From Escherichia coli (GTDB taxonomy: Bacteria; Pseudomonadota; Gammaproteobacteria; Enterobacterales; Enterobacteriaceae), in NCBI RefSeq assembly GCF_003334405.1, contig NZ_QOWM01000003.1: DNA of 64,000 bases. One strand, given 5' to 3'. Position numbers and translations under genes: made by a program. Below are positions 27,524 through 30,679 of this stretch, in pieces. The notes beneath the pieces are model-generated. The model saw only the letters and a list, made by a program, of their open reading frames with translations. It was not told the DNA's origin and made no database searches. The number at the start of each line of letters is the position of its first letter. Positions within the stretch are counted from its first letter, which is position 1.

Positions 27524-30163
27524 ATGCTGGGTAAATATAAAGCCGTTCTCGCGCTGTTATTACTGATTATTCTTGTGCCGTTGACGCTGCTGATGACGCT
27601 CGGGCTGTGGGTTCCCACGCTGGCGGGCATCTGGCTACCGCTCGGGACACGTATTGCATTAGATGAAAGCCCACGCATTACGCGTAAAGGTTTAATCATT
27701 CCCGATCTCCGTTATCTGGTGGGAGATTGTCAGCTTGCGCATATCACCAACGCCAGCCTTTCACATCCCAGCCGCTGGTTATTGAACGTCGGCACGGTAG
27801 AACTTGATTCTGCTTGTCTGGCGAAATTGCCGCAGACGGAGCAATCGCCAGCCGCTCCAAAAACACTCGCGCAGTGGCAGGCCATGCTGCCTAACACCTG
27901 GATCAATATCGATAAACTGATTTTTTCTCCCTGGCAGGAATGGCAGGGAAAACTCTCTCTCGCATTAACCTCTGATATCCAGCAACTGCGTTATCAGGGC
28001 GAAAAAGTTAAATTTCAAGGCCAGCTGAAAGGGCAACAACTTACAGTCAGCGAACTGGATGTCGTCGCGTTTGAAAATCAGCCGCCGGTAAAACTGGTGG
28101 GGGAATTTGCTATGCCGCTCGTGCCGGATGGACTTCCTGTAAGTGGGCATGCTACTGCGACGTTAAACTTGCCGCAGGAACCGTCACTGGTGGATGCCGA
28201 GCTGGACTGGCAGGAAAATAGCGGGCAATTGATCGTGCTGGCACGGGATAACGGCGATCCGTTGCTCGATTTGCCGTGGCAAATTACTCGTCAACAATTG
28301 ACCGTAAGCGATGGTCGCTGGAGCTGGCCGTATGCAGGTTTTCCTTTGAGTGGCCGACTGGGTGTCAAAGTCGACAACTGGCAGGCAGGGCTTGAGAACG
28401 CTCTGGTCAGCGGACGACTGAGTGTGCTGACCCAGGGGCAAGCGGGTAAGGGCAACGCGGTGCTTAATTTTGGCCCAGGAAAATTAAGCATGGATAACAG
28501 TCAGCTGCCTCTGCAGCTGACCGGTGAAGCGAAACAGGCGGACCTCATTTTATATGCCCGTTTACCTGCGCAGCTAAGTGGAAGTCTGTCTGACCCAACG
28601 CTGACCTTTGAGCCAGGCGCGTTACTTCGTTCAAAGGGAAGAGTCATCGATTCGCTGGACATCGATGAAATCCGCTGGCCTTTAGCGGGTGTAAAAGTCA
28701 CCCAACGTGGTGTTGACGGACGTTTGCAGGCCATCTTGCAGGCGCATGAAAATGAACTGGGCGATTTCGTGCTGCATATGGATGGGCTGGCGAATGATTT
28801 TCTCCCTGACGCTGGCCGCTGGCAGTGGCGCTACTGGGGAAAAGGGAGTTTTACACCGATGAATGCCACCTGGGATGTCGCAGGAAAAGGTGAGTGGCAT
28901 GACAGCACGATTACGCTGACCGATCTCTCCACCGGTTTCGACCAGTTACAATACGGTACGATGACGGTAGAAAAGCCGCGATTAATTCTCGACAAGCCCA
29001 TCGTCTGGGTACGTGACGCACAGCATCCCTCCTTTAGCGGCGCGCTGTCACTGGACGCCGGGCAAACGCTGTTCACTGGCGGCAGTGTGTTACCGCCATC
29101 AACCTTAAAATTTAGCGTCGATGGGCGCGATCCTACCTATTTCCTCTTTAAAGGCGATTTACATGCTGGTGAGATTGGCCCGGTTCGGGTAAATGGTCGC
29201 TGGGACGGTATTCGTCTGCGCGGTAACGCCTGGTGGCCTAAACAATCACTGACCGTATTCCAGCCGCTGGTGCCACCCGACTGGAAGATGAACTTACGCG
29301 ATGGTGAACTGTATGCTCAGGTTGCATTTTCTGCTGCGCCTGAACAAGGATTCCGCGCGGGAGGACACGGCGTGTTGAAAGGCGGTAGTGCCTGGATGCC
29401 AGATAATCAGGTTAACGGTGTCGATTTTGTCCTGCCTTTCCGTTTTGCCGATGGAGCCTGGCATCTGGGGACTCGCGGCCCCGTTACGTTGCGAATTGCC
29501 GAAGTGATTAATCTGGTGACAGCGAAAAATATTACGGCTGATTTGCAAGGGCGTTATCCGTGGACTGAAGAAGAACCCTTGCTGTTGACTGATGTTAGCG
29601 TCGATGTGTTAGGCGGTAACGTACTGATGAAACAATTACGTATGCCGCAACATGACCCGGCGCTGTTGCGGCTGAATAATCTCTCATCCAGCGAACTGGT
29701 TAGCGCCGTCAATCCGAAACAATTCGCCATGTCCGGGGCATTTAGTGGTGCACTGCCGTTATGGCTGAACAATGAAAAATGGATTGTGAAAGATGGCTGG
29801 CTGGCGAATAGCGGGCCGATGACATTGCGACTGGATAAAGACACTGCGGATGCGGTGGTAAAAGACAATATGACTGCGGGTTCAGCAATTAACTGGTTGC
29901 GCTATATGGAAATTAGCCGTTCATCGACAAAAATTAATTTAGATAATCTCGGTTTATTAACCATGCAGGCCAACATTACAGGTACCAGTCGCGTTGATGG
30001 TAAAAGCGGTACGGTAAACCTTAATTACCATCATGAAGAGAATATTTTTACGCTGTGGCGCAGTTTACGCTTTGGCGATAATCTCCAGGCATGGCTGGAG
30101 CAGAACGCACGTCTGCCGGGAAATGACTGTCCGCAAGGAAAAGAGTGTGAGGAAAAACAATGA
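27524..30163 (+). CDS. ydbH: AsmA-family large envelope protein
   Basis: 879 aa with N-terminal TM anchor; stop overlaps ynbE start. Confidence 0.9.
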   Translation: MLGKYKAVLALLLLIILVPLTLLMTLGLWVPTLAGIWLPLGTRIALDESPRITRKGLIIPDLRYLVGDCQLAHITNASLSHPSRWLLNVGTVELDSACLAKLPQTEQSPAAPKTLAQWQAMLPNTWINIDKLIFSPWQEWQGKLSLALTSDIQQLRYQGEKVKFQGQLKGQQLTVSELDVVAFENQPPVKLVGEFAMPLVPDGLPVSGHATATLNLPQEPSLVDAELDWQENSGQLIVLARDNGDPLLDLPWQITRQQLTVSDGRWSWPYAGFPLSGRLGVKVDNWQAGLENALVSGRLSVLTQGQAGKGNAVLNFGPGKLSMDNSQLPLQLTGEAKQADLILYARLPAQLSGSLSDPTLTFEPGALLRSKGRVIDSLDIDEIRWPLAGVKVTQRGVDGRLQAILQAHENELGDFVLHMDGLANDFLPDAGRWQWRYWGKGSFTPMNATWDVAGKGEWHDSTITLTDLSTGFDQLQYGTMTVEKPRLILDKPIVWVRDAQHPSFSGALSLDAGQTLFTGGSVLPPSTLKFSVDGRDPTYFLFKGDLHAGEIGPVRVNGRWDGIRLRGNAWWPKQSLTVFQPLVPPDWKMNLRDGELYAQVAFSAAPEQGFRAGGHGVLKGGSAWMPDNQVNGVDFVLPFRFADGAWHLGTRGPVTLRIAEVINLVTAKNITADLQGRYPWTEEEPLLLTDVSVDVLGGNVLMKQLRMPQHDPALLRLNNLSSSELVSAVNPKQFAMSGAFSGALPLWLNNEKWIVKDGWLANSGPMTLRLDKDTADAVVKDNMTAGSAINWLRYMEISRSSTKINLDNLGLLTMQANITGTSRVDGKSGTVNLNYHHEENIFTLWRSLRFGDNLQAWLEQNARLPGNDCPQGKECEEKQ

Positions 30164-30345
30164 AAATTTTACTGGCTGCGTTGACGTCATCTTTTATGCT
30201 GGTTGGCTGTACGCCTCGCATTGAAGTCGCTGCACCTAAGGAACCGATCACTATCAATATGAACGTTAAAATTGAGCATGAGATCATCATCAAGGCAGAC
30301 AAAGATGTCGAAGAGCTGCTTGAAACTCGTAGCGATCTTTTCTGA
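30160..30345 (+). CDS. ynbE: small lipoprotein YnbE
   Basis: 61 aa with lipobox LVGC; ATGA overlap with ydbH. Confidence 0.8.
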   Translation: MKILLAALTSSFMLVGCTPRIEVAAPKEPITINMNVKIEHEIIIKADKDVEELLETRSDLF

Positions 30346-30349
30346 GGTG

Positions 30350-30679
30350 ATGATGAAGAAAACATTACTTCTTTGTGCGTTTCTTGTTGGGCTGGTAAGC
30401 AGCAATGTAATGGCATTGACTCTGGATGAAGCCAGAACTCAGGGGCGGGTAGGTGAAACATTTTACGGTTATCTGGTTGCGCTGAAAACGGATGCTGAAA
30501 CAGAGAAATTAGTAGCCGACATTAATGCCGAACGTAAAGCGAGTTACCAACAACTGGCAAAGCAAAATAATGTGTCGGTAGATGATATCGCGAAACTCGC
30601 CGGGCAAAAGCTCGTAGCTCGGGCCAAACCGGGGGAATATGTACAAGGGATAAACGGTAAATGGGTGCGAAAATTTTAA
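30350..30679 (+). CDS. ydbL: DUF1318 periplasmic protein YdbL
   Basis: 109 aa from MMKKTLLLCAF signal peptide, 4 nt after the ynbE stop. Confidence 0.8.
   Translation: MMKKTLLLCAFLVGLVSSNVMALTLDEARTQGRVGETFYGYLVALKTDAETEKLVADINAERKASYQQLAKQNNVSVDDIAKLAGQKLVARAKPGEYVQGINGKWVRKF

Follow-up and report, generated by a model that had tools for sequence, protein, structure and literature searches.

The ydbH-ynbE-ydbL operon of Escherichia coli, which encodes a large AsmA-like envelope protein and two small exported partners, occupies positions 27524-30679 on the plus strand of a 64,000-nucleotide stretch of E. coli DNA (contig NZ_QOWM01000003.1, assembly GCF_003334405.1; hereafter the window). A preliminary description, made from the sequence alone, had proposed that the three genes are translationally coupled and that their products form a dedicated trans-envelope complex. 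Our analyses leave very little doubt that this region is the ydbH-ynbE-ydbL operon, and that it is a functional unit with a compact gene layout. The DNA between 27300 and 30900 is 100% identical to that of E. coli K-12 MG1655, and likewise to several other strains; the same stretch is found in 5,418 of 5,426 complete E. coli genomes and is at least 80% covered in 5,410 of them. The RefSeq annotation places ydbH, ynbE and ydbL (protein accessions WP_000900941.1, WP_000698145.1 and WP_001300734.1 respectively) between a divergent ldhA and a convergent feaR.

The locus is identical to the published K-12 locus b1381-b1383 (Kumar, Davis and Ruiz, PNAS 2024, PMC11126948; De'Ath et al. 2026), and the sole difference lies in the start codon that the preliminary description chose for ydbL. 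Otherwise that description holds at the level of genes: the three open reading frames (ORFs) are real and lie on the same strand, as both direct ORF reading and the RefSeq annotation agree, while the gene names and protein classes are borne out by family profiles (NF007971/PF11739, Lipoprotein_19 and DUF1318), by the LVGC lipobox of YnbE and by the signal peptide of YdbL. Its hypothesis of a trans-envelope complex is right, yet already published, and the tests it proposed have already been carried out by others. What we add to published work is a correction of the ydbL start, a description of conserved gene order and junction geometry across species, and, modestly, a co-variation between the YnbE tail and the presence of ydbL.

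The three proteins

The ydbH ORF (27524..30163, ATG to TGA, 879 residues) is confirmed and encodes an inner-membrane-anchored AsmA-like protein of the repeating beta-groove type. It scores 1400.9 bits (cut-off 824) with the NCBIfam equivalog NF007971 over residues 1-878, and also matches Pfam PF11739 over residues 14-862 (E = 3.6e-291); the top structure matches in AFDB50 are all YdbH proteins, most of the full-length ones with a template modelling (TM) score of about 0.83-0.93. YdbH has a single strongly hydrophobic stretch, all 19-residue Kyte-Doolittle windows above 1.6 starting at residues 1-22, and the N-terminal hydrophobic helix (27533..27634, residues about 4-37) is identified as the inner-membrane anchor by hydropathy and by AlphaFold2, in keeping with the anchor already described (PMC11126948). 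An AlphaFold2 model built on an alignment of 41 orthologues (predicted local distance difference test score 85, predicted TM score 0.66) contains helices at 4-24 and 26-37, some 60 consecutive strands between 42 and 840, a further helix at 841-862 and a disordered tail. As would be expected of a groove protein, the modelled periplasmic part is thus filled by a long continuous beta-sheet.

The product of ynbE (30160..30345) is an outer-membrane lipoprotein of 61 residues, 45 of them in the mature form, annotated by RefSeq as 'YnbE family lipoprotein'. Its match to Pfam Lipoprotein_19 (PF13617; E = 3.7e-16, residues 26-59) covers the whole 34-position model. The signal peptide (30160..30210), located by regular expression and direct reading, carries the lipobox L14-V15-G16-C17, whose cysteine is invariant in the YnbE alignment. 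Bacterial lipoproteins are sorted according to the residue at position +2, and the Thr, not Asp, that follows C17 fits delivery of YnbE to the outer membrane. The segment I30-I38 (ITINMNVKI, 30247..30273) is a strand of strictly alternating hydrophobic and polar residues that would extend the YdbH groove, and its pattern, P-h-x-h-N-h-N-h-x-h, is present in all 80 orthologues (80/80). After it comes a charged C-terminal segment that ends in D-L-F; within this, K45-F61 (30292..30342), comprising the C-terminal helix and tail, is assigned as the YdbL-binding region by a recent preprint (10.64898/2026.03.16.712125) and by conservation of the tail.

The third gene, ydbL (30353..30679), encodes a periplasmic DUF1318 protein of 108 residues (109 from an alternative start at 30350), a chaperone-like modulator of YnbE. 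Besides its match to Pfam PF07027 (DUF1318; E = 2.2e-31), its residues 22-108 (23-109 of the 109-residue query) are identical to PDB 28oj_A, 'Probable chaperone-like protein YdbL'. The signal peptide comprises residues 1-21 (30353..30415; N-terminus MKKTLLLCAFLVGLVSSNVMA|LTLD) with cleavage after V-M-A, and the crystallised mature protein begins at L22 (10.64898/2026.03.16.712125; PDB 28oj). The preprint names R28, R61, N72 and others as YnbE-interface residues (10.64898/2026.03.16.712125), and these are well conserved among 62 diverse family representatives: position 28 is K or R in 61 of the 62, R61 and N58 are invariant, and N72 is kept in 49.

The sequence after the ynbE stop reads TGA GGTG ATG ATG and so offers two starts for ydbL, at 30350 (109 residues, 4-nt gap) and at 30353 (108 residues, 7-nt gap). 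The preliminary description took the former; the end it gave, 30679, is correct, and the start is probably one codon off. Translation most likely begins at the second ATG, because the GAGG core stands 5 nt from it and 2 nt from the first, because the modal ynbE-ydbL gap across species is 7 nt (15 loci, many of which have no start candidate at +4), and because the curated RefSeq annotation begins at 30353. All six loci for which a start at +4 was picked have the ATGATG doublet, and hence a +7 ATG too. The group that solved YdbL also numbers its residues 1-108 (10.64898/2026.03.16.712125).

Two further candidates were rejected. A 135-residue ORF listed at 30272-30679 on the plus strand, with a TTG start inside ynbE, is merely the ydbL frame staying open upstream into ynbE, and not a separate gene. 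In a few database proteins (P0001, P0004-P0007) YdbL is preceded by the first 40-60 residues of YnbE; they occur only as single-contig E. coli sequences, and are most likely frameshift or assembly artefacts and not natural fusions.

Gene junctions

Direct reading shows the start of ynbE and the stop of ydbH sharing an ATGA at 30160..30163, exactly as had been claimed. A Shine-Dalgarno sequence for ynbE, GAGGA (30149..30153), is embedded in the 3' end of ydbH at 6 nt from the ATG, and that of ydbL, GAGGTG (30344..30349), overlaps the ynbE stop TGA at 30343-30345. Stop/start overlaps of 4 nt are common in bacterial operons and unremarkable alone; the conservation of this one goes beyond chance. 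Across the 79 loci of our species comparison (see below) that have a ydbH/ynbE junction, the overlap is 4 nt in 46, 1 nt in five and longer in nine, and 18 have a gap of 2-112 nt. Of the 46 loci that share the 4-nt overlap, 43 have a GGAG, GAGG or AGGA in the 15 nt that precede ynbE. Downstream, ynbE and ydbL are usually 4-14 nt apart, and in 50 of 70 ydbL-bearing loci the ynbE stop codon falls within TGAGG, TAGGA or TAAGG. One locus of unusual layout belongs to Yersinia nurmii (L086, 3972-4959), where a 986-nt gap containing an inserted, opposite-strand gene of 154 codons separates ydbH from ynbE, while ynbE and ydbL remain 8 nt apart.

Conservation of gene order

Gene order was compared across species by querying a single genome from each species with a YnbE alignment and identifying the neighbours through local profile searches. 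This produced 80 loci, mostly from Enterobacterales, with additional representatives from Marinobacter, Oceanospirillaceae, Idiomarina, Nitrospirae and one Rhodospirillaceae metagenome-assembled genome. In 79 of the 80, ynbE is immediately preceded on its own strand by a YdbH-like ORF, and in 70 it is immediately followed by ydbL. The Rhodospirillaceae genome (L076, about 4990-5500) has a ynbE-ydbL pair and, alone among the 80, no YdbH-like ORF in the 5 kb upstream.

A library-wide search returned 1,254 YdbL-family clusters. Six representatives were looked up in metagenomic contigs, five with a single domain (37-46% identity to E. coli YdbL) and one with tandem DUF1318 domains. The five single-domain look-ups led to seven places, in each of which a gene for a YnbE-like lipoprotein lies directly upstream (in L003 the contig end truncates the gene call, whose translation is YnbE-like); on every contig of sufficient length, a YdbH-like gene comes before it. 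The tandem-domain look-up, on one short contig (L010, 821-1480), showed no YnbE-like gene call directly upstream. Proteins of this architecture, with two tandem YdbL-like DUF1318 domains in 219-237 residues, are represented by P0246, P0250 and P0266. Judged from sequence comparison, the conserved order and junctions support a conserved functional unit.

Loss of ydbL and the YnbE tail

At ten Enterobacterales loci (L047, L056, L062, L063, L067-L070, L072 and L080) ydbL is missing, its absence having been scored at the ynbE locus only. These loci are orthologous to the others, since azoR-hrpA lies downstream in 10/10 and ldhA upstream in 7/10, as in many ydbL-bearing relatives. In pairs with an aligned downstream flank, homology to the ydbL-bearing relative ends in the last codons of ynbE, whose 3' ends fall near position 5130-5230 in the ten loci, and resumes at the end of azoR. 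The loss coincides with a change in YnbE itself: the protein ends in L/I-F in 69 of 70 ydbL-bearing loci and in none of the ten that have no ydbL, where this end is lost or buried and which show seven tail types among them (Fisher's exact p = 6.7e-12, at locus level and without phylogenetic correction).

This co-variation fits the published K45-F61 interface and the dispensability of YdbL. If the joint loss reflects selection and not deletion geometry, the L/I-F tail and YdbL might constitute a self-contained control module, a suggestion that we put forward tentatively. The tail would then either serve YdbL as a necessary handle or do harm unless capped, and removal of both would yield a YdbL-independent bridge. 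A simpler reading is that each deletion of ydbL also took off the end of ynbE, the two genes being separated by so few nucleotides.

Flanking sequences and the remainder of the window

The divergent intergenic region between the starts of ldhA and ydbH (27317..27523, 207 nt) presumably contains the operon promoter, and a consensus sigma-70 scan found no site at threshold within it. Promoter and terminator scans upstream of ydbH and downstream of ydbL gave nothing convincing, with counts equal to those in shuffled sequence. The only Shine-Dalgarno-like element before ydbH (27480-27523) is an AGGA 12 nt upstream, weak and distant, unlike those of ynbE and ydbL; such a site would suit low synthesis of YdbH.

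Between the convergent ydbL and feaR lies a perfect 18-bp inverted repeat with a 5-nt loop (30813..30853), which overlaps the feaR stop codon (30851-30853). The fold of the 181-nt intergenic region has a z of -6.5, and the repeat may end both transcripts; it has no T-run and was not called by the terminator scan. An IS1 element is present between ydbL and feaR in strain ETEC1716, the operon being uninterrupted. A search of 27200-31000 against Rfam at a permissive threshold gave no real RNA family. Elsewhere in the window, Rfam matches at gathering level occur at 3415-3586, 10432-10824, 13334-13719, 17227-17425 and 21591-21711, comprising sok antitoxin RNA, two cspA-type thermoregulator leaders, IS009 and MicC. 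The window's first ~20 kb look prophage-derived, and a simple offset fails to align them with the MG1655 record to which the ydbH region is matched.

An intermembrane bridge

The movement of phospholipids to the outer membrane of Gram-negative bacteria is a long-standing question, to which YdbH-YnbE is one of three redundant and actively studied answers. YdbH is redundant with TamB and YhdP in outer-membrane lipid homeostasis, and only the combined loss of all three is lethal (Ruiz et al.). Single mutants have no phenotype owing to this redundancy, and the single-mutant test proposed in the preliminary description would therefore be uninformative (PMC11126948). When tamB and yhdP are absent, ydbH and ynbE each become essential and ydbL does not (PMC11126948). 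Genetics and in vivo cross-linking together define a bridge formed by inner-membrane YdbH and the outer-membrane lipoprotein YnbE: p-benzoylphenylalanine (pBPA) at YdbH W791 or W857 cross-links YnbE in vivo without any need for YdbL (PMC11126948). In P. aeruginosa the adjacent PA5306 (ynbE) is likewise required for the function of PA5307 (ydbH) (PMC12447247). The proposal of a dedicated trans-envelope complex therefore matches published genetics and cross-linking (PMC11126948). It holds for the YdbH-YnbE bridge; YdbL is dispensable for that bridge and acts as a modulator.

YdbH is anchored by its N-terminal helix in the inner membrane, and YnbE makes a contact with the YdbH C-terminal domain without which the system does not function. 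According to predictions and mutants reported by others, the long beta-sheet groove of YdbH would reach across the periplasm, and YnbE would add its I30-I38 strand to the last strand of YdbH. This beta-strand augmentation is backed by cross-linking and by paired prolines in the YnbE strand, which abolish function (PMC11126948). YnbE also multimerises; cells that lose YdbL have less YdbH and more YnbE multimers, and an excess of YdbL kills tamB yhdP cells (PMC11126948). Periplasmic YdbL binds a peptide of the C-terminal region of YnbE and limits the runaway multimerisation of YnbE. The preprint provides a 2.1 Å structure of YdbL and functional mutants of the YdbL-YnbE interface, which is predicted at K45-F61, with R28 of YdbL contacting F61; nuclear magnetic resonance (NMR) and native mass spectrometry show a YnbE E39-F61 peptide binding to YdbL, free YdbL is broken down by DegP in vitro, and protection from DegP is reported as well (10.64898/2026.03.16.712125). 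Phospholipids would travel along the hydrophobic groove.

Several points weigh against this reading. By the authors' own account, direct biochemical lipid transfer by YdbH-YnbE is still to be shown, and the modelled complex of YdbH with one YnbE, at ~180 Å, is shorter than the ~250 Å periplasm (PMC11126948). Searches of solved structures with YdbH returned generic beta-sheet matches only, and the fold link to TamB, YhdP and eukaryotic bridge proteins such as VPS13 rests on the literature. The first of these points leaves some room for a bridge that serves other than bulk phospholipid transport, for example as a tether or in protein or lipoprotein assembly, given that the AsmA-like proteins TamB and, to judge from paper titles, GspN have been linked to protein or lipoprotein handling. 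We think this improbable: redundancy with TamB and YhdP concerns outer-membrane lipid homeostasis (Ruiz et al.), the residues of the YnbE strand that face the groove are hydrophobic and strictly conserved, and a YdbH-YhdP fusion bypasses YnbE in P. aeruginosa (PMC12447247). Somewhat less remote, though still unlikely, is that YdbL is not a transient chaperone and instead a stable third subunit docked on the YdbH C-terminus in the finished bridge. Published AlphaFold-Multimer and MultiFold2 models put it there alongside YnbE, some YdbL variants altered where YdbH is predicted to bind have partial defects, and YdbH levels drop without YdbL. Yet YdbL can be dispensed with both for growth of tamB yhdP cells and for YdbH-YnbE cross-links (PMC11126948), escapes detection at native levels and becomes toxic when in excess (10.64898/2026.03.16.712125), and has no gene at ten orthologous loci of other species. 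That the three genes are mere neighbours can be practically dismissed; we found no point in its favour, conserved order (79/80 and 70/80 loci, and distant metagenomic relatives) speaks against it, and the published genetic and physical interactions refute it.

The word 'coupled' calls for more caution than the bridge itself. The compact overlapping geometry is present as described, whereas coupling is a step beyond it, suggested by that geometry together with its conservation and the dosage sensitivity of the system. The ATGA overlap and the placing of the ydbL ribosome-binding site in the ynbE stop would help to hold the three products at the ratio needed. An appreciable though lesser probability attaches to the genes being co-transcribed and translated largely independently, in which case each gene's ribosome-binding site and the degradation of free YdbL by DegP would set the ratio; this would contest only the preliminary description's term. 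Each of ynbE and ydbL has its own Shine-Dalgarno sequence at workable spacing, and distant gammaproteobacteria hold the gene order despite ydbH-ynbE gaps of 12-112 nt. RNA folding around all three start sites revealed no structure that would enforce coupling: the start regions of ynbE (z +1.45) and ydbL (z +0.09) are not occluded and are no more structured than shuffled controls, and independent initiation is therefore possible. Degradation of apo-YdbL by DegP in vitro (10.64898/2026.03.16.712125) would supply the turnover. Set against this, the junction is a 4-nt or 1-nt overlap in 51 of 79 loci, the ydbL Shine-Dalgarno sequence overlaps the ynbE stop in 50 of 70, and the system is dosage-sensitive. 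The preprint mentions translational coupling of the operon only as an experimental complication, and its authors treat it as a practical one (10.64898/2026.03.16.712125).

Comparison with known systems

The nearest parallels to the YdbH-YnbE bridge are the proteins with which YdbH is redundant. TamB, like YdbH, is an AsmA-like beta-groove protein that is anchored in the inner membrane and depends on a partner in the outer membrane; this partner, TamA, is an Omp85 beta-barrel and not a lipoprotein of 45 residues, TamB is the longer protein, and no YdbL-like modulator has been described for it. In P. aeruginosa, YdbH can function without TamA (PMC12447247). The AsmA-like paralogue YhdP is proposed to span the periplasm alone by means of C-terminal hydrophobic helices, and a YdbH fused to that region no longer needs YnbE (PMC12447247). 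For YdbL the published analogy is CsgC, a small periplasmic protein that restrains the amyloid-like polymerisation of its partner, the curli subunit CsgA (PMC11126948); CsgC is unrelated to YdbL in fold and family, and YdbL binds the C-terminal helix and tail of YnbE, not the polymerising strand. Further afield, the eukaryotic repeating beta-groove lipid transfer proteins VPS13 and ATG2 likewise bridge two membranes with a long hydrophobic groove, and a shared ancestry with the bacterial proteins has been proposed (PMC11126948).

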